Below are positions 8,011-61,068 of a DNA stretch of 64,000 bases, piece by piece. The notes below the pieces were generated by a model. It made no database searches. It was not told where the DNA came from and saw only the letters and a program-made list of their open reading frames with translations. Numbering within the stretch: the stretch's first letter is position 1; each line of letters starts with the position of its first letter. The translations under genes were made by a program, and so were the position numbers. This stretch comes from an uncultured Chloroflexia bacterium (GTDB lineage Bacteria; Chloroflexota; Limnocylindria; Limnocylindrales; CSP1-4): contig CAVYBU010000027.1 of NCBI GenBank assembly GCA_963766735.1, positions 1 through 64,000 on the forward strand, in the 5' to 3' direction.

Positions 8011-9205
8011 ATGAGCGATCAGACGCCTGGCACCCCGAGCGAGCCGGGATCGACGCCCCCGACCCCGCCTTCGACCCCGCCCCCGATGCCCCCGACCCCG
8101 CCTTCGACGCCCGACAAGGCGCCGACCGAGGCGGTTCCGACCCCGGCTCCGACCGCGGCGGTGCCCGTCCCCGCGCCGGCTCCTCCCCCGACGGCGGCCG
8201 GTGGCGGCAACCGCAACGCCCTGATCGTCGGAGCGGTGGTCGTGGTGCTCGCGATCATCGTCGGCGCCTTTCTCCTGAACCAGGGCAATGCGACGTCGCC
8301 GGGCGCGACGGCGAGCGCCGGCGCCGAGTCGAGCCAGCCGGCGACCGAAGAGCCGACCGAGGAGCCGGCGACCGAAGAGCCGACCGAGGCCCCCACGCCC
8401 ACGCCCGATGCCTGCGCCCCTGAGAACCTCGCGCTCAAGACCGCCGGCGCGCTCACCATCGGCGCCGACAACCCGGCCTACCCGCCGTACTTCGCCCATC
8501 GCGAGGGCGGCAACACCCCGCCGTGGGAAGACTCGGACTACACGGGCGACCCGACGACCGGTGAGGGCTTCGAGAGCGCCGTCGCCTACGCGATCGCGGA
8601 CAAGCTCGGCATCGCCAGGGACAGCGTGACCTGGACCGTTGTCCCGTTCACAAACTCCTTCGCCCCCGGCGCCAAGGACTTCGACTTCTACATCACCCAG
8701 GTCTCGTACAAGCCGGAACGGGCCCAGGCGGCCGACCTGTCCGAGGGCTACTACACGGTCCTCCAGTCCATCGTCGCTCTCAAGGACAGCCCGCTCGCGA
8801 CGGTGACCTCGATCGCCGATCTCGCCGGGTACAAGTTCGGGGCCCAGGTCGGCACGACCAGCTACGACACGATTGTCAACACGATCAAGCCGACCAACGA
8901 GCCGCAGGTCTTCGACACCAACGATCTCGCGGTCGAGGCACTCAAGTCGGGGCAGATCGACGGCCTCGTCGTCGACCTCCCGACGGCGGATTTCGTCACC
9001 AACGTCCAGGTGGAGAACGCGGTCGCCGTGGGCAAGTTCGACACCGGCACGGCCGAGTACTTCTCGCTGGTCCTCGAGAAGGACAGCGCCGCTGACGCCC
9101 TGCGTCAACGCGGCGATCACCGCCCTCAACGACGATGGCACCTTCGCGGGGCTCGTCACCCAGTGGCTCCCGTTCCAGGATGGCGTCCCGGCCTTCCAGC
9201 CCTAG
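8011..9205 (+). CDS. Polar amino-acid ABC transporter substrate-binding protein (frameshift near 9087)
   Basis: SBP family 3 motifs (LTIGADNPAYPPY, GFE, GAQVGTTS, LKSGQIDG); C-terminus PLTPCVNAAITAL in shifted frame; GAGGA SD. Confidence 0.88.
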
Positions 9206-9226
9206 TCGAGCCGGGACCCTGACCTG

Positions 9227-10129
9227 GTGGCCGTGACCGGCGGCCCGTCCGACCGCGGCACCCGTACCCGGATGCCGCGGCGGGCGAGGCTGTCGCGGGC
9301 CCGCGACGAGGGAACACTCCGGTCGCTGACGATCACCATCGTCAGCACGGTCGTCTTCTTCGGCGTCCTCGGCTGGATCATCGTCAACGCGCCCGGATGG
9401 GAGGCGGTTCGCGAGAAGTTCCTGTCACCCAGGTACTTTGCGGAGGCGTTCGGCTTCATCGACGGCCAGTTCGTCTGGGAGCGCTCGATCGTCCGGTTCT
9501 TCGTCGTCAACATCCAGCTGTTCCTGATCGCGGAGGTCCTGATCCTCACGTTCGGCCTCCTGCTGGCGGTGTTGCGGAGCTTGCGGGGACCGGTCTTCTT
9601 CCCGATCCGCGTCCTGTCCACCGTCTACGTCGACGTCTTCCGCGCGATACCGGGGATCCTCGTCATCTACATCCTGGGTTTCGGGATCCCCGGGCTCGGG
9701 ATCAAGGGCACCCCAACCGGCTTCCCCTGGGCGGTCGTTGCGCTGACGCTGATCTACTCCGCCTACGTGTCCGAGGTCTATCGCGCCGGCATCGACTCCA
9801 TCCACCCCAGCCAGGAGGCCGCCGCCCGATCCCTGGGCCTGTCGCGCTTCCAGACCCTGCGCCACGTGATCATCCCGCAGGCCGTGCGCCGGGTGATCCC
9901 GCCGCTTCTCAACGATTTCATCGGGCTCCAGAAGGACACGGTGCTCGTGTCCTATATCGGCGTGGTCGAGATCTTCCGCGCATCCCAGATCAAGGCGGCC
10001 GCGACCTTCAACTTCACGCCGTATGTGGCGACCGCCCTGGTGTTCGTCGTCGTGACGATCCCGCTGGCGCGGTTCACGGACTGGCTCGTCCAGCGTGACC
10101 GGAAGCGCGGCGCGGCGGGCGCCCGATGA
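9227..10129 (+). CDS. Amino-acid ABC transporter permease
   Basis: YVDVFRAIP, AYVSEVYRAGIDSI, EAAARSLGLS EAA motif. Confidence 0.95.
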   Translation: MAVTGGPSDRGTRTRMPRRARLSRARDEGTLRSLTITIVSTVVFFGVLGWIIVNAPGWEAVREKFLSPRYFAEAFGFIDGQFVWERSIVRFFVVNIQLFLIAEVLILTFGLLLAVLRSLRGPVFFPIRVLSTVYVDVFRAIPGILVIYILGFGIPGLGIKGTPTGFPWAVVALTLIYSAYVSEVYRAGIDSIHPSQEAAARSLGLSRFQTLRHVIIPQAVRRVIPPLLNDFIGLQKDTVLVSYIGVVEIFRASQIKAAATFNFTPYVATALVFVVVTIPLARFTDWLVQRDRKRGAAGAR

Positions 10130-10893
10130 GCGACGGAGAGGTCCGGGCCGCACTCTCGATCCAGGGCCTGCACAAGTCCTTCGGCGACCTGGAGGTGCTC
10201 CGCGGTATCGATCTCGAGGTGGCCGAACATGAGGTCATCGCGCTCATCGGCGCCTCGGGGAGCGGCAAGTCCACGCTCCTGCGCTGCATCAACCTGATCG
10301 AGCCGATCGATGCCGGCCGCATCCTCATCGAAGGCGACGAGATCACCGCGCGGGACGTGAAGGTCGACCTGATCCGCCGGCGGATCGGCATCGTGTTCCA
10401 GGCGTTCAACCTGTTCCCGCACATGAGCGTGCTGGACAACGTCACGCTCGCCCCGCGCAAGGTGCTGCGACAACCGGCAGCCGACGCGGAGCGTGCCGCG
10501 AAGGCGTTGCTGGAGCGCTTCGGGCTGGCCGAGAAGGCCGGCGAGTTCCCGGACCGGCTCTCCGGCGGGCAGCAGCAGCGCGTGGCGATCGTGCGGGCGC
10601 TGGCGATGCAGCCGGACCTCCTCCTCCTGGACGAGGTCACGTCGGCCCTGGACCCGGAGTTGGTGGCGGAGGTCCTCAACGTCATCCGGGAGCTGGCGGC
10701 CGGCGGCATGACGATGCTGATCGCCACCCACGAGATGGCCTTTGCCCGGGATATCGCGAACAGGGTCTGCTTCCTGGATGCCGGCCGGATCCTGGAGCAG
10801 GGGACACCGGAACAGATCTTCGAGCAGCCCCGGGAGGCGCGGACGCGCCAGTTCCTGAACCGGATCATCGAGGCGGGTCGGCTGCAGGTCTGA
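10126..10893 (+). CDS. Amino-acid ABC transporter ATP-binding protein
   Basis: GASGSGKS, LSGGQQQR, LLLDEVTSALDPE; GlnQ-like. Confidence 0.96.
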   Translation: MSDGEVRAALSIQGLHKSFGDLEVLRGIDLEVAEHEVIALIGASGSGKSTLLRCINLIEPIDAGRILIEGDEITARDVKVDLIRRRIGIVFQAFNLFPHMSVLDNVTLAPRKVLRQPAADAERAAKALLERFGLAEKAGEFPDRLSGGQQQRVAIVRALAMQPDLLLLDEVTSALDPELVAEVLNVIRELAAGGMTMLIATHEMAFARDIANRVCFLDAGRILEQGTPEQIFEQPREARTRQFLNRIIEAGRLQV

Positions 10894-12303: not shown

Positions 12304-15171
12304 TCAGGCGGTGTCCACCGTCGGGGGATCGACCGGGGTCGGCTCGGAGAGGGTGAACTCGGCGGCGAGGGCGAGGCCCTCCTCGGCCGTCGCCACGCGC
12401 CCGCGGCCTCGCCGCTTGGCCACGAAGCACGCCCGGTCGGCGGCGAGGAGCACCGCCTCCGTGTTGATGCCGTCCGCCGGGAAGGACGCCGTGCCGATGG
12501 AGGCCGAGATGTGCAGCCCCTCGGCGGCCCATGGAGTCCCGGGTCCTCCTGCCGCCGCCACGGCCGCTCCGACGCGCTCGGCGACGGGGGTGAGCCCCCC
12601 GGGGTCACTGCGCGCCAGGATGATCGCGAACTCGTCCCCGCCGTACCGGAACACGGTGTCCGATTCGCGGGCCGAGCCCAGGATCGCCATCGCGACCTCG
12701 CGCAGCAGCCTGTCACCGACCTGGTGGCCCAGGGAGTTGTTGACCGCGCTGAACTCGTCCAGGTCGATCATCACCAGCCCGAACGGTTCCCGCGACGCGA
12801 TGCTCCGCTCCAGCCGGTCCTTGAACGCGCCATGGTTCAGGAGCCCCGTGAGGGTGTCGGTGCGTGCCCTGACCTCGGCCGCCTGGAAGATCTCTGCATT
12901 GCGCAGCGCGATGGACACCTGCGCCGCGAACAGCTTGACGAGTTCGAACTCCTCCGCGTTGAACCGGACGGCCGTCCCGAGGCGCTCCAGGGTGAGCACG
13001 CCGACGGCGCCGGCCGGCCCCAGCAGCGGAACGACGATCAGGCTGCCCTCGATCTCCCCGGTGGCCCGGAAGTGGTTCACGCGCGGGTCATCCCGCTCGT
13101 CCTCGATCAGGACGGGCTCGTTGTGGTCCACGACCCAGGTGGCGATTCCCGTCTCGCCCGGCTCCCACGGTGCCAGGAATTCGTCGGCGTGGGTGCCGCG
13201 CGCGGTCAACGGCACGAGCAGGCCGGTGGGCAAGTCCACCACCTCGATCGCGATGTTGTCGCACTGGATGAGGGAGCCCAGCCGGTCTGTGATCTGCTCC
13301 AATACGCCCCGCGGGTCCAGCGTGGTCAGGATGGCCTCCGTCGTTCGCAGGAGCTCTTCCTGGGCTCGGAGCCGGCGCTCAAGGGCGCTCGACTGCTCGC
13401 GAAGCCGGGCCGTGGCATCCGCGTTCGCCATCGCCTGACCCGCGAACGTTGCGTAGATCATCAGCAGCCGCAGGTCGTCGTCGGTGAACTGACGGAGACC
13501 CTGCTTGGACAGCACGACCACGCCGAGGCACGTTCCCTCGTGGACCATGGGCGCGAGCAGCATCGACTCGTCGGCCTCCGCGTCCGTGCCTGGGATCGTG
13601 ATGGCCCTGGGGTCGTTGGCCGTGTCGTCCACCAGCTGCGGCACGCGGTACCGGGCAACCCATCCCGTGATCCCCTCGCCCACTGCGACGGCCAGGCTGT
13701 CGGCTGTCTCGTCGGAGTAGGCGTCGCCGTGTCCCAGCATCGCGACCGGGATCAGGTCCTGGTCGCGGACCCGGTAGACGCGCACGTTCTCGTAGTCGAT
13801 GAGCTGGCTGAGCTCGGTCGCGATCGTGTGGCCGATCGCGCCGACCTCGGTGAGCCCCGATAGCCGCCCGCCGAGACGCTGGATCGACTGGAGCTGGGCC
13901 GCCCACGCAGCCATCCGTCCGAAGGTGCGGGCAGACCTCACCGCGACGGCCGCGTCACCCGCCAGAGCCTCCGCCGCGTCGATGTCCACCTCGCCCCAGC
14001 GGTGGGCCCTCACATGACCGAGGTACAGCATGCCGTGGTGCTCATGGCCGTCCACCAGCGGCGCCGCGACCAGCGACTCGAGGCCCTCCTGGATCGCCGC
14101 TGCGCGGACCGGGCTACCGCGACGCGCGGCGTCTGCGCCAAGCAGCACGACCGGCCGGCGCGCGGGGATCTCCTGCTGGCCCTGCCGGGCCTCCTCGACA
14201 CCGCGGGCGAGTTCCACGAAGGACTCGGAGAAGCCGACGTTCCCGGGCGACGAGACGCGGCCCTCGGGGTCCCGCAGGATCACGGCGACATGGTCCGCGC
14301 CGAACAGGACGCGGGCGTGATCGCTGAGGTCACGGAGGACGTCGCTCACGTCCAGTCTCGACGCGAGGTCCGTGGCGATCCGGCGCAGCGCCTCCGAACG
14401 GCGGAGACGTCCCGATGCCTGCTCCGCTGCGGTCGCCCCGCGGACCAGGACCCCGAGCGTCCGCGCGATCGCACCGGCCAGCCGCTGACCGTCGTCGTGG
14501 CCCAGCTGCATGGCGCCCGCAAGGACGAGCACGCCCCAGGCCGCCTCGCCACCGGGGATCCGGACGACCAGTTCGTCCGTGCCCATGCCGAGGACGGGTG
14601 CGGGGCCCTCGACACCGGGTCGCGCGTGGATCGGGGTGGGTGACTCGAGGGCGAGGGTGAACAGGTTGCGCCCGGGTCTCACGGTCCGCGCCGCGGTCTT
14701 GCCGGAACCCTCGACGTCCGTCGCGCGTGGCACCAGCCCTCCTGGCCGCCGCTCCCAGATCCCGACGAGAGCCGCGCCGGTGACCTGGCGGATGTGCCTG
14801 CAGGCCTCGTCCAGGGCTGGGTCCAGCCCGGAGGGGAACGACGCTATCTCGGCCAGGTCGGCGAGCAGGTCCAGGCCCGCGGGAGAGTCCGTGAGCATCG
14901 TGGCGTCCGCGGCGCCTCGTCGAGACCCCCTGGACGGCGCCTGTCCCTCCTCGGGAACGGGCGCGCCGGCCGTGGCGGCCGTCAGGAACCGCTGGAGGTC
15001 AGCCGGGCGGTATCGCCGATCGCCACGGTCGTTGATCCGGTAGTAGCGAAGACGGCCTGCGTCGCTCCACGCCCTGACCGTGTTCGGGTGCACGCCGAGA
15101 ACGCGCGCCGCCTTCGTGACCGAGAGCGTCGCATCACCGGGGCGAGGGGTCTTGTTCGCCGATGCAGGCAT
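12304..15171 (-). CDS. Diguanylate cyclase with N-terminal MerR/excisionase-like HTH and multiple GAF domains
   Basis: LSVTKAARVLGVHPNTVRAWSDAGRL..GDRRY HTH; about four GAF repeats; DTLTGLLN and RESDTVFRYGGDEF. Confidence 0.92.
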   Translation of the reverse strand: MPASANKTPRPGDATLSVTKAARVLGVHPNTVRAWSDAGRLRYYRINDRGDRRYRPADLQRFLTAATAGAPVPEEGQAPSRGSRRGAADATMLTDSPAGLDLLADLAEIASFPSGLDPALDEACRHIRQVTGAALVGIWERRPGGLVPRATDVEGSGKTAARTVRPGRNLFTLALESPTPIHARPGVEGPAPVLGMGTDELVVRIPGGEAAWGVLVLAGAMQLGHDDGQRLAGAIARTLGVLVRGATAAEQASGRLRRSEALRRIATDLASRLDVSDVLRDLSDHARVLFGADHVAVILRDPEGRVSSPGNVGFSESFVELARGVEEARQGQQEIPARRPVVLLGADAARRGSPVRAAAIQEGLESLVAAPLVDGHEHHGMLYLGHVRAHRWGEVDIDAAEALAGDAAVAVRSARTFGRMAAWAAQLQSIQRLGGRLSGLTEVGAIGHTIATELSQLIDYENVRVYRVRDQDLIPVAMLGHGDAYSDETADSLAVAVGEGITGWVARYRVPQLVDDTANDPRAITIPGTDAEADESMLLAPMVHEGTCLGVVVLSKQGLRQFTDDDLRLLMIYATFAGQAMANADATARLREQSSALERRLRAQEELLRTTEAILTTLDPRGVLEQITDRLGSLIQCDNIAIEVVDLPTGLLVPLTARGTHADEFLAPWEPGETGIATWVVDHNEPVLIEDERDDPRVNHFRATGEIEGSLIVVPLLGPAGAVGVLTLERLGTAVRFNAEEFELVKLFAAQVSIALRNAEIFQAAEVRARTDTLTGLLNHGAFKDRLERSIASREPFGLVMIDLDEFSAVNNSLGHQVGDRLLREVAMAILGSARESDTVFRYGGDEFAIILARSDPGGLTPVAERVGAAVAAAGGPGTPWAAEGLHISASIGTASFPADGINTEAVLLAADRACFVAKRRGRGRVATAEEGLALAAEFTLSEPTPVDPPTVDTA

Positions 15172-15249
15172 GGAGGATTTGTCAAGCATGATGGGTACCG
15201 CCGAGAGGTTCAACGACTTCACAGGAGTTGCCAATAGGACAATGTTCCC

Positions 15250-15261
15250 ATCCACGTGGAT
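15250..15261. promoter_or_regulatory. Perfect 12-bp palindrome upstream of the cyclase
   Basis: ATCCACGTGGAT in an AT-richer intergenic stretch. Confidence 0.3.
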
Positions 15262-15314
15262 TCTGCGTCCGGCAACCCGAGCGCGGTGCCTCGGCGGTAC
15301 GGTCCCGCCTGGCC

Positions 15315-15656
15315 TCAGTTGCCGGGGCGCGACTCTCGGGGGCCGCCTGTCAAGCGGACGTAGAGCAGCGTCGCCAGGAGGCTTGCGAGGGCGATCCCGG
15401 CGACCAGCACGATTGCCGCCACCGGATCGCCCACCAGGCCCGGACCCTGGCCGCTGCTCCGCGGATCGCCGCCCGCGGCGGCCGTCGGCGCCGGCGATGC
15501 GGCGAGCGCGATGGCGGCGGATCCGAACAGGGGAATGACGAGCCCGAGGACGAGCCCGGAGGCGCGACCGAAGACCGCGATGATGACCGCGGACCAGCGA
15601 CGTGCCGCCGGCATCAACGGCCGCATGCCAGCCCACGGACGGCGCCCCCCGCTCAC
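15315..15656 (-). CDS. Small membrane protein
   Basis: Two hydrophobic segments flanking GGDPRSSGQGPGLVGDP; directly downstream of the 15658-16375 gene. Confidence 0.65.
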   Translation of the reverse strand: MSGGRRPWAGMRPLMPAARRWSAVIIAVFGRASGLVLGLVIPLFGSAAIALAASPAPTAAAGGDPRSSGQGPGLVGDPVAAIVLVAGIALASLLATLLYVRLTGGPRESRPGN

Positions 15657-15657
15657 G

Positions 15658-18629: not shown

Positions 18630-19111
18630 GCATTCAGGTGGTCGGCGCCCTGGCCCCCGAGATCGCACTCCCCGATGAGAACGGCACGCTCCATCGCCTG
18701 GCCGACCGCCGCGGCTCCTGGACGGTCGTCTACTTCTACCCGAAGGACGACACGCCCGGCTGCACGACCGAGGCCTGCCAGTTCCGGGACCTCAATGCGG
18801 ACATCGAGGGGATGGACGCAGCCGTCTGGGGCGTCAGCCCGGACGGATCCGGAAGCCACGCGGCGTTCCGCGCGAAGTTCGGTCTCCCGTTCACCCTCCT
18901 GTCCGACATGGACCACGCCGTCTCGGAGGCGTACGGTGCCTGGCAGGAGAAGACCAACTACGGCAGGACGTACATGGGGATCGGCCGCTCCAGCTTCCTC
19001 GTGGACCCCGACGGCCGCATCGCGGCGGCGTGGCCGAAGGTGAAGGCCGACGGACACGCTGCGCAGGTCCTGGAGGCCATCCGTGCCGCGCGGGCGGCAC
19101 GCGATGCCTGA
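18626..19111 (+). CDS. bcp: Peroxiredoxin BCP/PrxQ
   Basis: YFYPKDDTPGCTTEAC, GVSPD, RSSFLVD. Confidence 0.95.
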   Translation: MSIQVVGALAPEIALPDENGTLHRLADRRGSWTVVYFYPKDDTPGCTTEACQFRDLNADIEGMDAAVWGVSPDGSGSHAAFRAKFGLPFTLLSDMDHAVSEAYGAWQEKTNYGRTYMGIGRSSFLVDPDGRIAAAWPKVKADGHAAQVLEAIRAARAARDA

Positions 19112-19239
19112 ACCGGGCACGAAGGAGGTCTCGCCCGTGGGGGGAGACGAGCGAGACCTTGATCCAGAACCTGGCACGCTGCCAACGTCCCGGTAACGGG
19201 GCTCCAACGCAACCGCAACGAAGCCCGCGAGGTCCGCAG

Positions 19240-20040
19240 ATGTCCGATGTGAACGCCCGCCGGTCGCACGCCTGGCGCCCGGAGCGCTTCATGGTCATCG
19301 CCGCCCACCCGGACGACGCCGACTTCGGGCCCGCGGCCACGGCCGCCCGCTGGATCGACGAGGGGTCAACCGGCTGGCTGGTGTGCTGCACGAGCGGCGA
19401 CGCGGGCGCGGACGACTGGCGGGCAGACCCGTTCGAGCTCGCCGCGGTCCGGGAGGCCGAGCAGCGGGCCGCCGCAGACGTGGTCGGCTACGCGGGCGTC
19501 AGCTTCCTGCATCAGCCTGACGGCGCCGTGTCCAACGACCTCGCACTCCGCGAGCTGCTGGTCCGGGAGATACGGACCATGCGCCCTGATGCCGTGCTGG
19601 CCGTGGACCCTGAGACCCTGTTCTACGGGGACGGGGGGGTCAACCACGCCGATCACCGGGCAGCCGGCCTCGCGGCGGTCGATGCGGTCTACCCGGCGGC
19701 ACGGAACGCGATGGCCTTCCCCTGGCTCGCACGGGACGGGCTTGAGCCGCACGTAGTCCGGCGCCTCTACCTCTTCTGGTCGAACCACTCGTCCGCGTGG
19801 GTCGACGTTACCGGCACCCTGGACCGCAAGATCGACGCCCTGCGTGCCCACGGGAGTCAGCTCCGCCACCCGGAGCGCCTGGAGCCGCGGATCCGCGAGT
19901 GGGCCCGTGAGGAAGGTGAGGCGATCGGGGTGGCGGCCGCAGAGGCCTTCCGCGTGATCGTCATCGAGGACGACGACGAAGAAGGGCCCACCCACGACAC
20001 CCCGCCGGACACGGAGGGCGCCGCGCCCGGTCCTGGCTGA
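19240..20040 (+). CDS. PIG-L family deacetylase
   Basis: AHPDD, TSGDAG, REAEQRAA, NHADH, ALRAHGSQ. Confidence 0.93.
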   Translation: MSDVNARRSHAWRPERFMVIAAHPDDADFGPAATAARWIDEGSTGWLVCCTSGDAGADDWRADPFELAAVREAEQRAAADVVGYAGVSFLHQPDGAVSNDLALRELLVREIRTMRPDAVLAVDPETLFYGDGGVNHADHRAAGLAAVDAVYPAARNAMAFPWLARDGLEPHVVRRLYLFWSNHSSAWVDVTGTLDRKIDALRAHGSQLRHPERLEPRIREWAREEGEAIGVAAAEAFRVIVIEDDDEEGPTHDTPPDTEGAAPGPG

Positions 20041-20049
20041 GAAACCCTC

Positions 20050-21926
20050 CTAGTCGGTGGCGAGCAGAATCGCGCGGGCCCGGCCCCAGGCGTTCCAGAT
20101 CTCCCCGAGACCATCGGCTTGCGGCCCAAGGGCGTCGACCACGGACCCGAGGGAGAGGTCGTCCGCCCGACTGGCCAGCCACGCGTCCGCCGCGACGTTC
20201 GCCCCGGCATAGAGCCCGGCGATCTCCCCTTCCCGGGGCCAGATGCGGATCCGCATGGGATCGAGACCGGCATAGCCCACAGCAAGGGAGAGATCGCGTG
20301 CGGCGGGCACCCGGGCGTCCGCGAACCCGCCGAGCCCGTCGTACCGGAAGCCGAGCGACGACAGCGCTCGCACGATCTCGCGGCGTTCCGCGTGGGTGAA
20401 CAGCTGCCAGAACGGATCGTCGTCCGGGAGGTCCAGGAACCCAGCCTCGATCGCGCGTGCGACGATCGCGTCCACGAGAGCCGAGACGCGCAGCCGCCAC
20501 GTGGCGACCCCAGCCGGATCATCGTCGGCGAACGCGGCCACAGCGCGCTCGCGCGCAGCCCGATCGCCGCGCAACACGCGGATGATGACCGGCAGCCCGG
20601 CCGGTTCTCGTCGGAGCCCTCGGGTGAGCCAGGGTCCGGGGCCAGGTCGGGCTCCGTGAGCCACGCGCCGGCGAGGGGATGCAGCGTCTCGGCCGCTTCG
20701 GGCTCGGCGGCAGGAGGCTGGACAGCCGCCAGGGCGAGCTCCTCGCATCGCGCCAGCTCCTCGCGCGCGTCCCGGCACTCCTGCTCGGTTACCTCGGCGC
20801 TGATCCTCGCGGCGTCAGCCTCGGCTGCCAGCCGCTCGAGCGCGGGCAGCCGCTCGCGGAGCTCGGCCGTGGCCGTCTCGACGAGGCGGAGGGCTGTCCG
20901 GCTGTCCGTGTTGGTGCGGTCGATTGCCCTCAGCCAGTGACGGGCTGCCGCCTCGGCCTCGTCGGGCGTGCCCGCCGCCGAGCTCGCCGTCCTGTACGCC
21001 GCGTGGAGCTCGCTCTTCATCGCAGCGACGATACGGGGGTCCGACGCCTCGCGGGCCTTGTCAATCTGCTCGTGCAGGTCATCGATCGCCCGCCTGGCGT
21101 CGCGCACGGCATCCGCCGCCGCACGCCCTCGCTCGCGCGCCGCAGCCGCCTCCACGCAGCGCTCATCGGCTGCGGTCCGGGCCGGATCGCATGGGCCTGC
21201 CGTCAGGGTGTTGCCGACCGGATCCGGTGCGGTCGACGGCGGTGCCGCCGGGGATGGCTTGCGGGTCTCATCCGCGCCGGCCTCCCCGGCGCCGGCAATC
21301 GTGAACCCCACGGCGGCCGCGGCCAGGGTGGGCTGCACCTCGTGGGCCGGGGGTCGGGCCCGGACAAGCCACTCCGACGCAGGCCGTCCGAGATCCATGA
21401 CGGCAGTCGGCTGCGGCCCTGCCGCTTGTGCTGTGAACGCCGATCCGTTCGCAGCGGCCATCGCCACCGCGGCCGGGACCGGCGGTGCCGGCACGGTGTC
21501 GCGCCAGGGGTTGCCGCGCATCACGGATGAGGTCCCGCCGAGCGGCGCGACCGGAAGCCCGCCGACGACGGGGATGGCCACTGCCGTGGTGGCGAGCATC
21601 GCCGGGGCGGATGGAACGCGTGTTCGTATCGGCGAGGTGATGGCCGGCGCCTCCGGCCCGGCGGTGAGGAAGGTTCCGGGGGCGGCGTCGACGCTGTCCG
21701 ACCAGGCCGCCTCATCGGGGGAACCGGGCGGCGACGGGCGGCTGCGGACCGCCTCTGGATCCGCGAGCGTGACGGCTCGTCGTACCCCGATCGAGTTTGG
21801 GGCGATCGTGACCCGCACCTCGCGCCGTGGGGCGGGTCGGGAGCGGGCCGCCGCCAGGAACGCCGCGCCGAGCGCGCAACCGAGGATGAGGCCGAGGGCC
21901 AGGAAGGCGATCTCGGACGAACTCAC
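20050..21926 (-). CDS. Hypothetical membrane-anchored coiled-coil protein (frameshift near 20605)
   Basis: N-terminal TM, Ala/Pro-rich and coiled-coil regions, then globular C-domain PAGLPVIIRVLRGDR in shifted frame; GGGAG SD. Confidence 0.7.
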
Positions 21927-22234
21927 TGTTCTCCCTTGCGGACCCTGGATCGAGGCACCGATCGTCCGCCAGCGTAGCTGCGCCACATGCCGGCGTCAAC
22001 CGTTCCGGACGCTGGAAGACCGCACCTCAGCCGCCCGCTGCCCGCTCCCGGCGATGACCGGGAGCTCTCGGATCGCCGGCCAACAGCCATCCGGCCCCGG
22101 CCGCTGCCCACGCGACCCCCCGATTGCAGTGCACGCATGGCCCCGGCTTGGTAGATTCCCACGCGTCGGTGGCAAGGCCACCGACGGTTCCCCGTCGCCC
22201 TGCCGAGTCCCCGCAGAAGAGGCGTACCCCCTTC

Positions 22235-24070
22235 GTGACCCTCGACCAGACCCAGGAATTCCTCGTCCAGCCGGTCGACGCGTCCTGGCTCCAGTGCAAT
22301 ATCGAGTGCCAGGAGGCGTGCCCAGTCGGCACGAACTGCCGGGGCTACCTCAATCTGGCCGCCGAAGGGCGGTTCGAGGAGGGGTACATCCTGGCCCGCG
22401 AGCCGAACCCCGTCGCAGCGATGTGCTCGTACGTCTGCTCCGCCCCGTGCGAGCGCGCGTGCCGGCGCGGCGACATCGACCGCCCGCTTGCGATCCGCGC
22501 CATGAAGCGGTTCCTCGTGGAGTGGCACGAGGCGTCTGGCATCCCGGACGTCATGCCCGCGATCACGCCGCGCGAGGAGCGTGTCGCCGTGGTGGGCGCC
22601 GGACCGGCCGGTCTCGCGGTGGCCCGGGAGCTCGCGAGCCAGGGCTACCAGGTCACGGTCTACGACAGCCTCCCGTATGGCGGCGGCACGATGCTCATCG
22701 GGGTGCCGGCCTTCCGGCTCCCACGCGAGGCGATCGAGATGGATGTCCGCCTGGTGGAGCGTCTGGGCGTCACGTTCGTGTTCGACACCACGATCGGCAT
22801 CGACATCCCGTTCGCAGACCTCCAGCGGGACTTCGACGCGATCGCGATCACCGCGGGCGCCATGAACCCGGTCTACCTGGACCTGCCCGGCGCGGACCTC
22901 GACGGCGTGCAGTACGGCATCGACTTCATGAAGAAGGCCAATCTGGGCCAGGAGCTGTCGGTTGGCCGCAACGTGGTGGTCATCGGCGGCGGCTACACCG
23001 CGATGGACTGTTCCCGCACCAGCCTCCGCCACGGCGCCGAGCACGTCACCATCGCCTACCGCCGCACGCGGTCGGAGCTGGTGGTGGACGAGGAGGAGCT
23101 GGGCGAGACCGAGCGCGAGGGCGTGACCCTGGACTTTCTCGTCAGCCCGATCGAGCTGGTCGGCGAGGACGGCAGGCTCACCGGCGTGCGCTTCATCCGC
23201 AACAGGCTGGGCGAGCCGGATGCATCAGGTCGCCGCTCCCCGGTGCCGATCGAGGGCTCCGAGTTCGTCGTCCCGGCGGACACCGTCATCCCGGCCGTGT
23301 CCCAGTCAGCGGATCTCAGCTTCCTGCCGGTGGACTCCAGCTTTGAGGTCAACCGCGGGCGACTCAAGGTGGACCCGGCGACCTATGCCACCAACATCCG
23401 TGGCGTGTTCGCCTGTGGTGACTTCGTGACCGGCCCCACCACCCTGATCGAGTCGGCCGGGCACGGCAAGAAGGCCGCCTACGCCATCGACCGCTACCTG
23501 GATGGTCGGACGGACGTGACCGTCACCCCGAACGTGAAGATCACCAGCTCCTGGCGCCACGACATGCCCGAGCTGTACGACGTCCTGCCCCGGCAGCACA
23601 TCCCGATGGTGGACCTGCCGGCCCGGATGCCGTCGGTGGACCCGGCGGTCAACTTCAGCACCCCGGTGGAGCTGGGGTACGACGCGACCGCGGCGGTGGC
23701 CGAGTCCACGCGCTGCCTCATGTGCAACTACAACATCTGGTTCGATCCGTTCCGGTGCGTGCTCTGCGGCGCCTGCGCCGACGTGTGCCCCGAAGGCGTC
23801 ATCCACATGGTGGATGTGAACCAGCTCAAGACGGAGGGGCTGCTGCCCGAGGTCGAGGAAGCCTACGGCTGGTCGCAGGGTGCGGCCATGATCCTCGACG
23901 AGGAGCGGTGCATCCGCTGCGCACTGTGCGTGAAGCGGTGCCCCTTCGATGCCATCACCATGGAGCGCTTCGAGCTCCAGGAGATCTCGAGCGACGGGCG
24001 GCTCTACAAAGAGTCGTATCGTGACGCCCAACTCGCCGGGACGGCCGGCGTGGCAGGAGGAGCCAGGTGA
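22235..24070 (+). CDS. GltD/NfnB-like FAD/NAD(P)H oxidoreductase with extra C-terminal 2[4Fe-4S] ferredoxin domain
   Basis: [73 protein letters not shown]. Confidence 0.92.
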
Positions 24071-24795
24071 GTTTCCTCGAGCGGGTCGACCAGTCCATCA
24101 GGCGCAGCCCCGTCTGGCGGTCGATCTTCCGCAACCCGTATCCCGACGACGAGCGGTCGCGGGCATACGCGGTCATGAACAACGTGTTCCTGCACCTGCA
24201 CCCCGTGCGGGTCAGGCAGCACGCGGTGAAGTTCGCCTACACCTTCTGCCTCGGCGGCCTCAGCTTCTTCCTGTTCCTCGTGCTGACGGTCACCGGCGTC
24301 TACCTGATGTTCTTCTACGTGCCCTCGGACACGCAGGCGTACTCGAACATCCTGGACATCCAGAGCAAGGTGGCGTTCGGCCTGCTGACCCGGAACATCC
24401 ACCGGTGGGCTGCCCACCTGATGGTGTTCTTCGTCTTCCTGCACATGATGCGGGTCTTCTACCACGGGGCCTACAAGCCGCCGCGGGAATTCAACTGGGT
24501 CGTCGGCGTTGTGCTTCTGTTCCTGACGATCATGCTCAGCTTCACCGGCTACCTCCTGCCGTGGGACCAGATCGCGTACTGGGCCATCACCATCGGTACC
24601 AACATGGCCGGCTATGCGCCGCTGTTCAACACGCCGTCGAAGCTCCTCCTGCTCGGTGGCATCGAGGTGGGGCAGAACACCCTCCTGCGGTTCTACGTGC
24701 TTCACATCATGGTCTTCCCCCTGGTTGCCGCGATCTTCCTGGCCGTCCACTTCTGGCGGATCCGGAAGGACGGCGGCATCTCCGGGCCGCTGTGA
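24067..24795 (+). CDS. petB: Cytochrome b6-type N-terminal subunit of a Rieske/cyt b complex
   Basis: FCLGG (heme ci-type Cys), [35 protein letters not shown]. Confidence 0.93.
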
Positions 24796-24810
24796 GCCGA
24801 GGCTGATCAG

Positions 24811-25428
24811 ATGACAGACACCAAGCAGCCGACCGAGGGCCGCGTGGTCACGCCCGTCGATCCGGCACGACGCACGGAGATCGACAAGCAGCGGGTGCCC
24901 ATGTCGGCGCGGCCATACCGCCTCCTGGCGCTGGTCAAGCAGGATGCGGTGGTCCGGGTCCAGAAGGAACCCGACGACACGGTCATGACCTGGCCGCACC
25001 TGCTCGCCATCGAGTTCATGGCCGCGGTCCTGATGAGCGTGTTCCTGCTCCTCATGGGCCTGATGATGAACGCGCCCCTGGAGGACCTGGCGAACGGCAA
25101 CATCACGCCGGCCGTCGCCAAGGCGCCGTGGTACTTCCTTGGGCTCCAGGAGCTGCTGGCCTACTTCCACCCGACCGTCGCCGGCGTGCTCGTGCCGACG
25201 TTCGTGCTGGTTGGCGCTGCACTCATGCCGTTCATCGATCGCGGCAACATCCGGGCCGTCCGGCCCTCCGAGCGCAAGACGGCCGTGGTGCTGTTCTCGC
25301 TGTTCTGCGCCCTCGGGCTGTTCGTCACCTTCGTCGGGATCTTCTTCCGGGGCCCCGGCTACTCGTTCGTCATCCCGTACCTCGAGTTCTTCTCGATCGG
25401 GACGCCGGGCCTCCACTTCGCCCTCTGA
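24811..25428 (+). CDS. petD: Cytochrome b subunit IV-like
   Basis: TWPHLL, APLEDLAN, KAPWYF (PEWY equivalent), PFIDR. Confidence 0.88.
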   Translation: MTDTKQPTEGRVVTPVDPARRTEIDKQRVPMSARPYRLLALVKQDAVVRVQKEPDDTVMTWPHLLAIEFMAAVLMSVFLLLMGLMMNAPLEDLANGNITPAVAKAPWYFLGLQELLAYFHPTVAGVLVPTFVLVGAALMPFIDRGNIRAVRPSERKTAVVLFSLFCALGLFVTFVGIFFRGPGYSFVIPYLEFFSIGTPGLHFAL

Positions 25429-25447
25429 TCGGAAGGGATCCGAGCGC

Positions 25448-26122
25448 ATGAGCAACCACCAGGTCGAACCGGCCAGCAAGCCCCAGGCGCTGACCACGGA
25501 GGCTCTCAAGGCCCTCCGGCACGAGCAGGTCCAGGGCATCTCCCGGCGGGAGCTGCTCCGGGGATCGCTTGCCGCAGGCATGGGCCTCTGGCTGCTCGAG
25601 GTCAGCGCCGGCACGATCGGCTTCCTGTGGCCGAACCTCGAGGGCCAGTTCGGCGGGGAAGTGCGCGTCGGCACGCTGGACGAGATCCTGGTGGCCAACG
25701 CCACCTTGCCCATCAACGAGGGCTTTCCTGCATACGTGTCCGCCGCGAAGGCGTTCGTCATGCTGGTGAACCCGTCCCAGCAGCGATTCATCCCCGGGGA
25801 GGATCCGACCGGCGACGGTACGGACGTCAACGTCCGTGCGCTCTACCAGCGCTGCCCTCACCTGGGCTGCAAGCCCAATCCGTGCGAGAAGAACTTCTGG
25901 CTCGAGTGCCCGTGTCACGGGTCCCGCTACGACCGGCTGGGTGTCAAGGCTGCCGGCGCGCAGTACGGGCCCGCCCCGCGCGGCATGGACCGGTTCGCGG
26001 TCCGCGTCGATGCGGATGGCGTTCTTGTCGTCAACACCGGCAAGATCACCCTCGGCCCTCTGCCCGTCGCGGTTGGCCAGCCCGGGATCGAGCCGCCGCT
26101 CACGCCAACCGGATGCATCTGA
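25448..26122 (+). CDS. petC: Rieske 2Fe-2S protein
   Basis: Tat-like SRRELL plus TM; CPHLGC and CPCHGSRY boxes; GPAPRGM. Confidence 0.93.
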   Translation: MSNHQVEPASKPQALTTEALKALRHEQVQGISRRELLRGSLAAGMGLWLLEVSAGTIGFLWPNLEGQFGGEVRVGTLDEILVANATLPINEGFPAYVSAAKAFVMLVNPSQQRFIPGEDPTGDGTDVNVRALYQRCPHLGCKPNPCEKNFWLECPCHGSRYDRLGVKAAGAQYGPAPRGMDRFAVRVDADGVLVVNTGKITLGPLPVAVGQPGIEPPLTPTGCI

Positions 26123-26162
26123 TCACGCCTTCCACCCGCCACTCCGCCCACCGAGGAGTCCG

Positions 26163-27251
26163 ATGACCGACCAGACCGGCCGCCAGCCCGAGGAGCGCCT
26201 CCCCGCGCCACGGCCGTCGTCCGCTCCGGTGCCGGCCGAGCGCTTCTCGGCGCCGCCGTCGGCCCACCGCAACGACCTGACGCCCGAGCGCGCCGCGAAG
26301 ATCGTCCGCCAGTCGGCCAGCGCGCGCTGGGTGGGCTTCCTCGCGGTGACGGTCGTCGCCCTGTTCGTCATGGGCTACTACTTCTACGAGACCGGGCTGC
26401 CGAACGGGCTGACGCAGTCGCGCCTGGACACGGCCCTGGAGGACCAGCAGGTCACCTCGGTGGAGCGTGGCTACAACATCTACCAGGCCAACTGCGCCCA
26501 ATGCCACGGCGTGGAAGGCGAGGGCGGCAAGGGACCCACGCTGAACCGCCAGGACAAGCTGTTCGCCCACCTCAACCCGGAATACCTCGAGAACATCATG
26601 GTGGCCGGCGGGCGCTACGCCTGCGGCACGGCAGACTCGATCATGCCGATCTGGTCCAATACGGGGAACCCGGCGGGCCCGCTCAACTACAAGCAGGTCG
26701 AGGACCTCATCGCGTTCATCCGGGCCGAGAAGGGCCACGAGTACCGGGTGATGGACCCCGACCTGTTCGAGCCGGTGGTCGATCCGGCCACGGGCCAGGA
26801 GATCACGTTCGAGGGCTGGGTGGATCCGGCCTACCTGCCGGAGCCCGGTGCCACGCCGTTCCCGGCCTGCTGGTCGGACGAGTTCAGTGCCCCGGCGGCG
26901 TCGTCCGCGCCCGGGGAGTCCCCAGCGCCGGGGGCGTCGACGGCACCCGGCGCGTCATCGGCCCCGGCCGGGACCGTCCTGAAGGTCGTCGCGTCCGGCA
27001 TCGCCTTTGACGTCAAGGAGCTCAGCGCCCCGGCCGACGCCGATTTCCAGATCGACTTCGACAACCAGGACGCGGGGATCCCGCACAACATCGAGATCAA
27101 GGACGCCAGCGGCACGAGCGTGTTCAAGGGCGAGATCTTCAACGGCGCCGCCGTCAAGACGTATACCGTGCCGGCGCTGGCCGCCGGTACCTACCAGTTC
27201 ATCTGCACGGTGCATCCGAACATGCTCGGCACGCTGAAGGTCGGGAGCTGA
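26163..27251 (+). CDS. Membrane-anchored cytochrome c fused to a cupredoxin domain
   Basis: TM, CAQCH heme motif, IMP distal Met, Ala/Pro linker, PHN..CTVHPNM type-1 copper site; GAGGAG SD. Confidence 0.9.
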   Translation: MTDQTGRQPEERLPAPRPSSAPVPAERFSAPPSAHRNDLTPERAAKIVRQSASARWVGFLAVTVVALFVMGYYFYETGLPNGLTQSRLDTALEDQQVTSVERGYNIYQANCAQCHGVEGEGGKGPTLNRQDKLFAHLNPEYLENIMVAGGRYACGTADSIMPIWSNTGNPAGPLNYKQVEDLIAFIRAEKGHEYRVMDPDLFEPVVDPATGQEITFEGWVDPAYLPEPGATPFPACWSDEFSAPAASSAPGESPAPGASTAPGASSAPAGTVLKVVASGIAFDVKELSAPADADFQIDFDNQDAGIPHNIEIKDASGTSVFKGEIFNGAAVKTYTVPALAAGTYQFICTVHPNMLGTLKVGS

Positions 27252-27255
27252 GACC

Positions 27256-28743
27256 ATGGCACAGACCGGCCCCCCCGACACCCACAACGTCCCGGCACGC
27301 CACCGGCGCATCTTCTTCGGCCTGTTCGATGCGGACGGCTGGAGCTGGGCGATCGTCAAGGCGTCCTTCTGGTTCGTCACGATCATCACCCTCCTCGGGT
27401 ATATCCCCGACCGCGCCTACTACTTCACCGTGCAACGGACCGTCGACCTCTGGCCGTTGGCGATCTCGTTCGCCACGCAGCCAACTGCCGAGAACACGCT
27501 GCTCAGGTGGTCGCCGATCAACTTCTGCCCGCCCGAGAACGAGACGCTGCCGTGTCCGGTGCCGATTGGGGCAACGCTCCCGTGGCATCCGGCACCGCCC
27601 GAGGTCCAGCTGCCGGCCGCCCGGGTCGACGGGTCGACGGCCGTCATCGGCCAGACCTACCTCTACGCCGGCGGCAGCGATGGCCAGGCGGCAGTCGCCA
27701 CGACGTACGTCTCGCACGCCGTCGGGACCGGGAACCTGGACACGTGGTCCGAGGGGCCGGCGCTCCCCGAACCGCGATCCGACGCCGCGACCGTCGTGGT
27801 CGGCAGCACCCTCTATCTCCTCGGCGGCTACGGGCCCGATGGCGCCCCCACCACCACCGCCTACAGCATCACCGTGGAGAACGACGGGACGCTGGGCGAG
27901 TGGAAGGCCGAGGATGCGCTGGCGCTCCCCGAGCCGCGAGCCGGCGGCAGCGCGGTTGGGATATCGGACGGGATCGTGGTCATGGGCGGGACCGATGGCA
28001 CGGCGCCCACACGCGGCGTGTGGAAGAGCCAGCATGACGCCTCGGGCGTGCTCGGGCCATGGGTGGCCCAGCAGCCCCTGTACGAGGAGAACGTGGACGG
28101 GGTCGCGATGCATGTCGGCGACATCGTCTTCGTCATCGGCGGCCGGAATCTCTCTGGCGATCCGGTGACGACGGTTCAGCAGGGCCTCGTGGGGGGCGGC
28201 CCGAACGCGACGGCCGAGGATCCGAACGTCATCGATGCCTGGCGGGCAAGCGAGCAGACCAACCTGCCGGTCGCGCGGACGGACATGTCCGGGTTCAGCG
28301 CGAACGGCGCGCTCTACATCCAGGGAGGCGCCGATGCCTCCGGACCCAAGCCCGAGACCTGGTGGGCCACCCCCGACGCCGAGGGCGTGATTGCGGAGTG
28401 GAAGAACCTGCCCGAGCTCGACCTGGGTGAGGGCGTCAGGGGCTCCGGCGGGGTCGCCTCCGGATCGCATGCCTTCATCATGGGCGGGGAGACGACCGGC
28501 GGTCCGACGGCCGGCATCGCGCGCGCCAACCTGGCGCCGCAGGAGCCGTTCTTCCAGCTCGGCGTGCTGGGTGCCACGATCCCGGGTCTCAAGCTGGACG
28601 GCGAGGTTGGCCAGCAGATCGGCTACCTGAACGCGGCCGGCGTGGGCACGGTCAACTTCATCGCCCTCCTGCTCGTCGGCTGGGGGTTCGCGCACAAGGA
28701 CCGGGTTCGCGAGATCCTCGCGAAGCGCCGCCGCAAGGGCTGA
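27256..28743 (+). CDS. Membrane-anchored Kelch-repeat beta-propeller protein
   Basis: Repeated LP.PR..Y/VxxGG..W units; TMs at both ends; starts 4 nt after the cyt c gene. Confidence 0.85.
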   Translation: MAQTGPPDTHNVPARHRRIFFGLFDADGWSWAIVKASFWFVTIITLLGYIPDRAYYFTVQRTVDLWPLAISFATQPTAENTLLRWSPINFCPPENETLPCPVPIGATLPWHPAPPEVQLPAARVDGSTAVIGQTYLYAGGSDGQAAVATTYVSHAVGTGNLDTWSEGPALPEPRSDAATVVVGSTLYLLGGYGPDGAPTTTAYSITVENDGTLGEWKAEDALALPEPRAGGSAVGISDGIVVMGGTDGTAPTRGVWKSQHDASGVLGPWVAQQPLYEENVDGVAMHVGDIVFVIGGRNLSGDPVTTVQQGLVGGGPNATAEDPNVIDAWRASEQTNLPVARTDMSGFSANGALYIQGGADASGPKPETWWATPDAEGVIAEWKNLPELDLGEGVRGSGGVASGSHAFIMGGETTGGPTAGIARANLAPQEPFFQLGVLGATIPGLKLDGEVGQQIGYLNAAGVGTVNFIALLLVGWGFAHKDRVREILAKRRRKG

Positions 28744-28802
28744 GCCGCGGCCTGACCAGCCGCGCTCAGCCGGGGAGCGGGCAGCGACCCGACCAATCGA
28801 GC

Positions 28803-29171
28803 TTAGCCGGGGAGCTGGCCCTCGCCCGGCTCCACCGGACCCCGCTTGACGTCGAGCCCGAGCCGCTGCCAGCCATCGATGCCGCCGGCCACGTTCCCCA
28901 CGTCCTCCCATCCCTGCTGCAGCAGGTAGCTCGTCACGCCCGTCGAGCGGCTCCCGGACTGGCAGATCACGAGGATCGGCCGGTCCTTCGGGATGTCCTG
29001 CAGGCGGACTCCCAGCTGGGACATCGGGATGAACAGGCAGCCCTCCACCCGGACCTGCCGGAACTCGTCCAGCTCGCGGACGTCGAGAAGCAGCGCGGGC
29101 CGCACGGGGTCACGCCGCCGGATGTCCGCGTACAGCGGGTCGAGAGCGGGGATTGCCTGGGGGCGGTTCAT
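28803..29171 (-). CDS. Rhodanese-like protein
   Basis: LLDVRE, ICQSGSRS, VAGGIDGW. Confidence 0.92.
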   Translation of the reverse strand: MNRPQAIPALDPLYADIRRRDPVRPALLLDVRELDEFRQVRVEGCLFIPMSQLGVRLQDIPKDRPILVICQSGSRSTGVTSYLLQQGWEDVGNVAGGIDGWQRLGLDVKRGPVEPGEGQLPG

Positions 29172-29611
29172 GCAGGTCCGGTCCTCTGTATGGTCGGGGC
29201 GACGTGGGGGAGCTCCGGTCGCGCGAGCCGGGCATCGATGTCGGCAAGGAGGGCGGGCAGGTCCACGCCCCAGGCGACGGCCGCGGGCTCCGCGAGGGCC
29301 AGGTGCCGTCGCGCGCCGGCGAGGTTCTTCGCAACCCCAGCCGGGTTGCCGCGGCCGGCGTGCACGTACGCGGCTGCGACCTTGATGAGGCCCTGATGAA
29401 GCGCGCGCTCCGGGAGATCGTCGCTGCCCATCCAGGCCGGCTCGAGAGCCTCGTGAGCGGCGAAGAACTCACCCCGGGCGTACGCGGCGAGACCCTCGTC
29501 GAAGGCGGCCCGTCGCGCCTCGAGTGGAAGCGGCCGGTAGGCCTTGTCGCGATCGCCCTGCCGGACGAGGCCGGCGCGGACCGGGCGCTCGGGAAGCGGC
29601 ACGGGAGGCAT
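29168..29611 (-). CDS. DUF309 family protein
   Basis: GEFFAAHEALEPAW..QGLIKVAAAYVH..GN. Confidence 0.88.
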   Translation of the reverse strand: MPPVPLPERPVRAGLVRQGDRDKAYRPLPLEARRAAFDEGLAAYARGEFFAAHEALEPAWMGSDDLPERALHQGLIKVAAAYVHAGRGNPAGVAKNLAGARRHLALAEPAAVAWGVDLPALLADIDARLARPELPHVAPTIQRTGPA

Positions 29612-29641
29612 GCCCCGAGTGTACCGGTGAGGACGCCGGGG

Positions 29642-30097
29642 TCAGGCGCGTGCTGAGTCGTCCGGGAGGGTCGCGAGGGGCCGCCGGCCGGCGAAGCCCT
29701 CGTTCGTATCGTGCCAGAAGCCCACGCGTTCCTCGCCGAGACGCCAGCACAGCCACGCCTGCCGTCCGCTGACGAGGGCCGGGAAGTCAAGGAGGCCGGT
29801 GGGGATGTCGCGCAGGACGATGCCGCGCTCGTCGAGCCAGGCAGCATCGGCCTGCATCTGGTCCACGAGGCCGCGCATCCGGAGGCGCAGCCGGCGAAGC
29901 TCCGGATCGTCGCCCTCGGCGTCGCCCTGCGCCGTGGGTTCGTCGGCCATCAGGTCCTCGACCAGGGCGCCCTCACGATCCCGGTAGGCATCTCGCAGGC
30001 CGACGAGCTCCGCGCGCTCATCGCGCAGGCGGCTGACCACCACCGCGAGGTCGGGGACCAGCCGGTTGGCGTCTTCGAGGGAGTACATGCGGGACAC
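29642..30097 (-). CDS. DUF2203 family protein
   Basis: YSLEDANRLVP, LRDIPTGLLDFP, LCWRLGE..WH..GFAGRRPL; TACAAT 6 nt before GTG. Confidence 0.88.
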   Translation of the reverse strand: MSRMYSLEDANRLVPDLAVVVSRLRDERAELVGLRDAYRDREGALVEDLMADEPTAQGDAEGDDPELRRLRLRMRGLVDQMQADAAWLDERGIVLRDIPTGLLDFPALVSGRQAWLCWRLGEERVGFWHDTNEGFAGRRPLATLPDDSARA

Positions 30098-55934: not shown

Positions 55935-55975
55935 GGGTTCCTCCTATGCGGTGACCGATGGGTTTGCGGCCGGGG

Positions 55976-56671: not shown

Positions 56672-56720
56672 AAGAGCTCAGGGTACCGCCGGCCGCCGTC
56701 ACAGGTCGCGCGCCCGCGGG

Positions 56721-59016: not shown

Positions 59017-59025
59017 CGGACGGCC

Positions 59026-60159: not shown

Positions 60160-60169
60160 CGGTGAGGGT

Positions 60170-61054: not shown

Positions 61055-61068
61055 CGTCTCAGCCCCCT

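Follow-up and report, generated by a model that had tools for sequence, protein, structure and literature searches.

The question raised by this locus is why a gene for a flavin and iron-sulfur oxidoreductase (OR) stands at the head of a Rieske/cytochrome b operon, and whether its product works within the respiratory complex that the following genes encode. We analysed a stretch of 64,000 nucleotides (the window; positions 1 to 64,000 of contig CAVYBU010000027.1, GenBank assembly GCA_963766735.1) from a soil or sediment Chloroflexota bacterium of the class Limnocylindria, whose genome (G000) has 3.6 Mb in 35 contigs and is 93.85% complete. Six consecutive genes on the plus strand at 22235-28743 form one unit according to Pfam matches and translations.

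We lean towards the reading that the operon encodes a b6c-type quinol:cytochrome c/cupredoxin oxidoreductase (complex III), with the OR as a cytoplasmic subunit and with a side path for NADP(H). As far as sequence can tell, the OR is probably bound to the complex on the cytoplasmic side. A bound subunit is the best reading because the overlap of OR with the cytochrome b6 gene is conserved, because OR is conserved to a degree like b6, and because it matches the family of the anammox subunits.

Operon structure and expression

The open reading frame (ORF) of OR spans 22124-24070; the likely GTG start at 22235, preceded by AAGAGG at 22217-22222, gives a gene at 22235-24070 (plus strand, 611 aa), identified by Pfam, translation, alignment and PDB/Foldseek comparison. 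Its end overlaps the cytochrome b6 gene (24067-24795, plus strand, 242 aa; Cytochrome_B, 2.1e-45). The bases GTGA at 24067-24070 are common to the TGA stop of OR and the GTG start of b6, and GGAGGA lies about 8 bases upstream, so that the translational-coupling junction occupies 24054-24070 on the plus strand (GGAGGAGCCAGGTGAGT).

Behind b6, on the same strand, follow subunit IV (24811-25428, 205 aa; Cytochrom_B_C, 2.5e-7), a Rieske [2Fe-2S] protein (25448-26122, 224 aa), a membrane-anchored fusion of a mono-haem cytochrome c with a type-1 cupredoxin (26163-27251) and, as the final gene, a Kelch beta-propeller protein (27256-28743). The last three were identified by Pfam and translation, the Kelch protein also by hydrophobicity. 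Downstream of the OR/b6 overlap the intergenic gaps are 15, 19, 40 and 4 bases in gene order. Pfam, the translations and the junction sequence thus bore out the six-gene operon with its overlap and short gaps, as described in the original prediction.

The window has about 71% G+C, which gives many spurious ORFs. From the ORF list and the codon-position GC pattern, the intergenic region 21987-22234 is presumed to hold the promoter. The 5' neighbour of the operon is a divergent minus-strand ORF (19857-21986) for which no Pfam match was found, and the ORFs 3' of the Kelch gene also lie on the minus strand. Neither a sigma-70-like promoter nor a terminator on the operon strand was found within 19000-30000.

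Contigs of four metatranscriptome libraries, from relatives 90-99% alike, covered the operon. One contig of 504 bases bridged the OR/b6 junction (23801-24303), and others bridged the subunit IV/Rieske and Rieske/cytochrome c junctions. These contigs give weak support for expression of the operon, because such libraries can contain DNA and a contig is not a single transcript.

Linkage and conservation within the class

Among 41 genomes of close relatives (own genus and sister family), 39 contained an OR of 80-100% identity, and in all 39 of them b6 started at most 10 bases from the OR end on the same contig. The two genomes that lacked OR (69% and 85% complete) also lacked b6 of the window type. 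In a draw of 401 genomes from the phylum, b6 adjoined OR in 38/38 in-class genomes, belonging to families f1 (16), f2 (4), f3 (16) and f4 (2). In family f3 an insertion ends the aligned part of OR 0.9 kb before b6, and a PBP gene, absent from the window, is located upstream of OR.

One contig scan yielded 80 public loci, all of them from close Limnocylindria. There b6 came directly after OR in 77, while the remaining three had the contig edge within 61 bases of OR; all six genes were present in 61 loci, every one with the gene order of the window. Of 110 locus records of relatives (some genomes being recorded twice), 104 had a gap of -4 or 0 bases between OR and b6, so the junction is more than chance. 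These tallies take in genomes flagged unpublished (G078, G266, G212, G310, G380 and G184).

Over the 80 public loci, the median identity to the window protein was 91.5% for b6 and 87.7% for OR (n=74), which was exceeded by b6 alone; subunit IV reached 83.3%, the Rieske protein 71.0%, the cytochrome c-cupredoxin 55.8% and the Kelch protein 50.8%. In family f2, with genomes of 1.0-1.4 Mb, the window-type cytochrome b is the sole cytochrome b in 15/16 genomes.

Seven genomes of family f1 (G190, G208, G217, G226, G244, G276 and G424; genera g5 and g6), which are 91-95% complete, contained neither OR nor b6. The oxidase gene COX1 was missing too in all five g5/g6 genomes tested, which suggests that these genera are an anaerobic branch inside the family.

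Build and family of the oxidoreductase

Pfam matches of OR included Fer4_20 (1.9e-15), Pyr_redox_2 (2.2e-27) and two Fer4 motifs. The domain order is an N-terminal Fe-S domain with two sets of four cysteines, the FAD and NADP(H) Rossmann domains, an RCLxC pair, and a C-terminal 2x[4Fe-4S] ferredoxin domain. Both the YRR motif and the extra 2[4Fe-4S] domain named in the original prediction are present, and YRR is invariant in 40/40 aligned ORs. In-class ORs have eight N-terminal cysteines (C21 in 33/35 sequences, and C25, C29, C35, C64, C68, C72 and C76), of which five are kept in five outside-class rows and six in Brocadiaceae rows. C494, C497 and the eight ferredoxin cysteines are invariant. 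No transmembrane or hydrophobic segment was predicted in OR.

The best PDB matches were the large subunits of NfnABC (9bov_A, E 9.5e-108; 9n5u_A, E 1e-107) and StnABC (8oh5_C, E 4.2e-93), followed by NfnB (4ylf_B, E 1.2e-88), NfnI (5jca_L, E 4.7e-79) and GltD (6s6s_G and 2vdc_G, E about 1e-65); the C-terminal 80 residues matched the FwdF polyferredoxin (5t5i_F). An AlphaFold2 model of OR (alignment of 40 sequences, pLDDT 78.8) gave the same ranking with Foldseek as by sequence. It fitted NfnI (5jca_L) with a target-normalised TM-score of 0.81 and an rmsd of 1.9 A over 425 columns, consistent with a predicted NfnB fold holding FAD, an NADPH site and two N-terminal [4Fe-4S] clusters.

GltD-type families are among the NCBIfam and Pfam matches of OR, so the small subunit of glutamate synthase has to be weighed; we consider it hardly credible. 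The NCBIfam scores lie below the cut-offs (204.7 against 447.7 for TIGR01317, 270.9 against 482.95 for TIGR01318), GltD ranks under NfnB-type proteins by sequence and fold, and the extra ferredoxin domain is missing from GltD. Moreover, GltB was not found in the 93.85% complete source genome, where the best PF01645 match, on another contig, scored 25 bits. OR therefore does not group with gltB-associated GltD, the outcome that would have spoken against the original prediction. The source genome has at least five GltD/NfnB-like genes, GltB not being found.

We also rejected OR as the NfnB of an NfnAB enzyme: the operon has no NfnA-like gene, and a canonical nfnA-nfnB-like pair is located elsewhere. 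There, an nfnA-like gene (DHODB_Fe-S_bind, G000:C4:117805) adjoins an nfnB-like paralogue at 118185-119483, and this pair (G000:C4:117805-119483) is likely the true NfnAB of the genome. Because of this separate pair and the undetected GltB, OR is neither NfnB of NfnAB nor GltD.

The same gene content bears on flavin-based bifurcation, by which an NfnB-type FAD would divide the electrons of NADPH, sending one share at low potential to soluble ferredoxin and the other at high potential to quinone or the haems of b6. The nearest solved relatives (NfnI, NfnAB, NfnABC and StnABC) do bifurcate, and OR has separate N- and C-terminal Fe-S modules. But the operon encodes no NfnA-like or NuoF-like partner, the nfnA-like gene being beside another paralogue, and published anammox models line up all four clusters from haem to FAD, according to Hauser et al. 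2025 (PMC12954380). We regard bifurcation as quite improbable and found no support for it in the OR operon, and the bifurcating flavin of the original prediction was not upheld.

A scan of 1.84 billion cluster representatives showed many full-length clusters of 560-700 aa with 37-44% identity to OR. Three of these carried organism tags (Nitrospinota; Thermincola; Planctomycetota/Brocadiaceae/Ca. Wunengus), and their members aligned with OR end to end at 38-40% identity, the proteins named Brocadiaceae, Ca. Wunengus and Planctomycetota at 38-39%. The spread of the family to other phyla is drawn from papers and from these tags of cluster members. By sequence, OR belongs to the protein family of the anammox NAD(P) oxidoreductase subunits Kuste4570 and Kustd1483, in agreement with the kinship to anammox Rieske/cytochrome b complexes proposed at the outset.

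In a quick tree, which is the OR tree cited here, all 40 ORs, linked or unlinked, grouped together and were separated from five paralogues of the same genome (SH-aLRT 95); within this group the in-class ORs and those from outside the class form a clade each. A Pfam scan of 10 longer OR homologues revealed no fusion with cytochrome b; the additional parts were response-regulator, rubredoxin or [2Fe-2S] domains, or a tandem arrangement. Among distant family proteins, P0018 (730 aa) has an N-terminal response-regulator receiver domain and P0046 (697 aa) a rubredoxin-like domain.

Membrane and p-side subunits

Cytochrome b6 contains the haem cn/ci cysteine in FCLGG (C61), invariant in 32/32 sequences, and a long, conserved n-side N-terminus in which H43 and H45 are invariant. 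In subunit IV the Qo motif reads K104 A105 P106 W107 Y108 and is invariant in 31/31 sequences; its n-side N-terminal segment is almost invariant in the order. The FCLGG cysteine and the APWY motif of the original prediction are thus both in place, APWY being an already published trait.

The Rieske protein has a twin-arginine (Tat) leader (SRRELL), the motifs CPHLGC and CPCHGSRY, and the S-Y signature in 9/10 aligned rows, which is read as high potential, above 260 mV (Kao and Hunte 2014, PMC4122944). The cytochrome c-cupredoxin has one haem motif (CAQCH), the cupredoxin pattern H...C-x2-H-x2-M and one hydrophobic segment; the Kelch protein has two such segments, N- and C-terminal.

A complex prediction of b6, subunit IV (residues 11-179) and OR (residues 12-597) gave 0.27 and 0.24, with the mark at 0.32, in a monomeric and haem-free job with separate alignments.

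The window b6 scored 215.6 bits on the NCBIfam cytochrome b6 model. The same gene (24067-24795) scored 299 bits on the NCBIfam equivalog ExtP (NF040969; cut-off 290), so that automatic annotation would mislabel it as ExtP. We rejected the identity with ExtP of Geobacter selenite/tellurite clusters (extHIJKLMNOPQS-type; PMC5877670), since multihaem, porin and rhodanese genes are not beside b6.

Metabolic setting in the genome

The aerobic oxidase expected for this organism was located in the same window as a haem-copper oxidase (COX1/COX2, 61069-63319, minus strand). The minus-strand region 55407-63319, which is about 27 kb away from the operon, brings together genes for the oxidase and for copper delivery: COX2, COX1, a gene for a 441-aa protein that ends in a cupredoxin, a thiol peroxidase-like gene, SCO1 and PCuAC.

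MenB was above the cut-off in the source genome and MqnA was not found in it, so the quinone is probably menaquinone. PntB was found in the source genome and also in 4/4 f2 genomes. On another contig there is a complex I operon (L061, G000:C3:45000-59000) with NuoB-NuoC-NuoD-NuoH followed by a NuoF-family ORF (L061:3895-5835). The next ORF (within L061:5109-8492) combines a NuoG-type [2Fe-2S] domain, an NfnB-like core, a ferredoxin domain and a C-terminal NuoI match, and NuoJ and NuoL come after it. The NfnB-like part is a paralogue of OR with 35% identity, and by its sequence complex I carries an NADPH-type module.

A second Rieske/cytochrome b cluster (L060, G000:C8:136000-151000) is composed of a NapC/NirT-like cytochrome, a Rieske protein, cytochrome b, subunit IV and a multihaem cytochrome. 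Its Rieske protein has the low-potential G-F signature and its cytochrome b is 47% identical to the window b6. The cluster is beside ResB/CcsA/DsbD cytochrome c maturation genes, and OR is not adjacent to it.

Elsewhere in the window, the minus strand at 12304-15657 encodes a 1117-aa protein with a MerR-type HTH, three GAF domains and GGDEF.

Proposed working of the complex

In the complex that we propose, complex III would feed the haem-copper oxidase, and OR would be a peripheral cytoplasmic subunit of the Kuste4570/Kustd1483 family. NADP(H) would bind at the YRR Rossmann site beside FAD. The two N-terminal and two C-terminal Fe-S clusters may act as a wire linking the flavin to haems bn and cn on the n-side of b6, as homology with the published anammox models suggests. 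Besides the normal Q cycle, which would be retained, the complex would then have a side path joining NADP(H) to the low-potential chain.

Electrons could leave or enter through this path, and we give a slight preference to the outlet. There, in an organism with menaquinone, a Rieske protein of high potential would oxidise quinol at Qo and so drive the second electron through the low-potential b haems to NADP+. The outlet fits better than the inlet because a Rieske protein with a high-potential signature occurs together with what is probably menaquinone, an argument also used for NADP+ reduction in anammox.

In the inlet direction, a bound OR would act as an NADPH dehydrogenase, passing electrons from NADPH through FAD and the Fe-S wire to haems cn and bn and to quinone at Qi, as a non-pumping entry comparable to NDH-2. 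An analogue is the proposed feed from FNR/ferredoxin into haem ci of the chloroplast b6f complex. With MenB present, the step from NADPH to menaquinone runs downhill; the YRR motif and the haem cn cysteine are both invariant; and the loss of OR along with b6 and COX1 ties it to aerobic electron flow. Yet such an inlet would duplicate complex I, which itself has the NADPH-type module, and Hauser et al. 2025 (PMC12954380) argue that it is the energy-wasting direction. The high-potential Rieske signature and menaquinone also suit the outlet better. We therefore take the inlet to be possible, at a clearly lower probability than the complex III reading with its NADP(H) side path.

Considering complex I and complex III together, we might speculate, with considerable doubt, that the aerobic chain of Limnocylindria is wired to NADPH at complex I (Nfn/Stn-type module, split NuoI) and at its only complex III. 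At complex III, the module would use driving force left over from the bifurcation of menaquinol electrons at a high-potential Rieske protein to make NADPH; alternatively, it would produce reduced ferredoxin through a flavin bifurcation in which the b haems serve as high-potential acceptor. If this is true, a mechanism so far proposed only for anammox would hold in a cosmopolitan aerobe.

Homologues outside the class and points against the complex

Full-length OR homologues outside the class were found in families f9, f16, f24, f28, f46 and f78. In f9, f16, f24, f28 and f46 the homologues, with 41-44% identity, are unlinked from b6 operons, which counts against the complex proposed above. Linkage, whose loss in relatives was to speak against the original prediction, thus holds throughout the class but fails in these five Chloroflexota families outside it. 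On complete or large contigs the distance from OR to the b6 operon was 0.15-3.1 Mb (OR homologue and b6 at 4.48 and 1.37 Mb in G151, 4.53 and 1.94 Mb in G311, 1.28 and 3.71 Mb in G177, and 3.63 and 3.48 Mb in G204), and the neighbours of the unlinked homologues are unrelated (peptidase M20, MFS and NACHT, for example).

Further against it, families f8, f18, f27, f33, f40 and f48 have b6 at 55-64% identity and no OR at E<=1e-105. Because these six families hold b6 without OR, the b6 clade is not dependent on OR. In f2 the sole complex III must run an ordinary Q cycle. With PntB and the NADPH-type module of complex I, the supply of NADPH is not obviously limiting in an aerobic heterotroph, which counts against the outlet. 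Finally, the joint loss of OR, b6 and COX1 in genera g5 and g6 may be a loss of aerobic respiration overall, with no specific tie between OR and b6.

These observations lead to another explanation, that OR is co-transcribed but free, a soluble NADPH:ferredoxin-type oxidoreductase and no subunit of complex III. It accords with the stand-alone homologues in the five families, with the lack of a transmembrane segment in OR, and with the same architecture in many clusters formed at 50% identity, including fusions with response-regulator and rubredoxin domains. The class-wide 4-base overlap and gene order, and a conservation equal to that of b6, speak for a bound OR instead. In the sampled genomes, moreover, unlinked OR homologues occurred only where the window b6 clade was also present. 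Family f28 has OR and b6 together in 10 of its 11 genomes, and in f24 each was found in 27/28 genomes, the misses being genomes 73% and 77% complete. Anammox complexes that contain both parts are expressed, as Dibrova et al. 2017 report after de Almeida 2016. A free OR is accordingly unlikely, and we retain the complex with OR as cytoplasmic subunit.

The sole outside-class homologue beside b6 was in G394 (family f78), with 39% identity and a CLGG-type b6. The locus (L053, G394:C6:55000-72000; 8184-10860, minus strand) is from another Chloroflexota class and has 47.5% G+C. Subunit IV and Rieske genes were not found there within 17 kb, and the pair looks like a two-gene "membrane-anchored dehydrogenase".

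Comparison with known systems

The linkage of an OR gene to cytochrome b and the APWY motif are already published for this cytochrome b clade, so the kind of system is not new. Anammox Rieske/cytochrome b complexes that carry an NAD(P) oxidoreductase as a subunit were reportedly described by Kartal in 2013, and Dibrova is said to have pointed out the OR-cytochrome b linkage in the same year. Cytochrome b of subfamily G co-occurs with large NAD(P)-binding Fe-S oxidoreductases, and its tree includes Ktedonobacter, Ilumatobacter, Nitrospina and anammox genera (Dibrova et al. 2017). The cytochrome b clade defined by APWY has Chloroflexi among its members, and its Rieske signatures are of mid-to-high potential (Kao and Hunte 2014, PMC4122944).

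The window operon agrees with this subfamily G/APWY clade in its short, split four-helix cytochrome b with CxGG and a separate subunit IV, in the APWY Qo motif, in the type of Rieske signature, and in having an NAD(P)/FAD/Fe-S oxidoreductase gene in the operon. Limnocylindria are outside the data sets of those papers, whose available text, Fig. S1 neighbourhood drawings aside, contains neither the cytochrome c-cupredoxin/Kelch form nor a class-wide fixation. We found no paper on the Limnocylindria form of the operon. New here are the class-wide counts, the joint occurrence of b6 and unlinked homologues in other classes, the 8-Cys variant and the direct alignment with Brocadiaceae proteins.

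Among the Nfn-Bfu large subunits (NfnABC 9bov/9n5u and StnABC 8oh5) are the best matches of OR over the NfnB-like core and the RCLxC/ferredoxin region. Unlike them, OR has no N-terminal [2Fe-2S] and no C-terminal formate-dehydrogenase-like domain, it measures 611 aa against 950-1180 aa, and its operon has no NuoE/NuoF-like partners. The Firmicute and heliobacterial b6c and cyanobacterial b6f complexes share the split b6/subunit IV, the haem cn cysteine and the Rieske protein, but they have PEWY or PDWY instead of APWY and no flavoprotein gene. In these complexes the b6 N-terminus before the cysteine is about 26 residues shorter.

The anammox operons (Kuenenia Kuste4569-4574 and Kustd1480-1485) have in common with the window a split b6 with the haem cn cysteine, a subunit IV with a P-W-Y type Qo motif, a Rieske protein with a signature of high-potential type, and a single-chain flavoprotein built of an NfnB-like core and a polyferredoxin-like 2x[4Fe-4S] domain, with the same homologues (9bov/9bp5 and 5t5i). 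Hauser et al. 2025 (PMC12954380) give 9bp5 and 5t5i as structural homologues of Kuste4570/Kustd1483, let four Fe-S clusters lead to FAD, and predict that two Kuste4571 chains bind an additional haem b through their His43. NADP+ reduction has been proposed for the anammox complexes. The Brocadiaceae rows, which were compared without gene context, differ in having six cysteines in the N-terminal Fe-S domain against eight here. Unlike the hexa-/octahaem cytochromes or HAO-like enzyme of anammox, of which the window operon has no counterpart, the p-side partners here are the mono-haem cytochrome c-cupredoxin and the Kelch protein, and the host is an aerobe with a haem-copper oxidase.

The role of OR on Rieske/cytochrome b complexes has so far been argued from anammox genomes, complexome data and models. 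Limnocylindria have the simplest version among those compared, with a single haem c and a single copper domain in an aerobic chain, and with no second cytochrome b in genomes of 1.0-1.4 Mb. Because of this simplicity, and because OR is conserved like b6, they are a cleaner place to ask whether NADPH is made or burned at such a complex.

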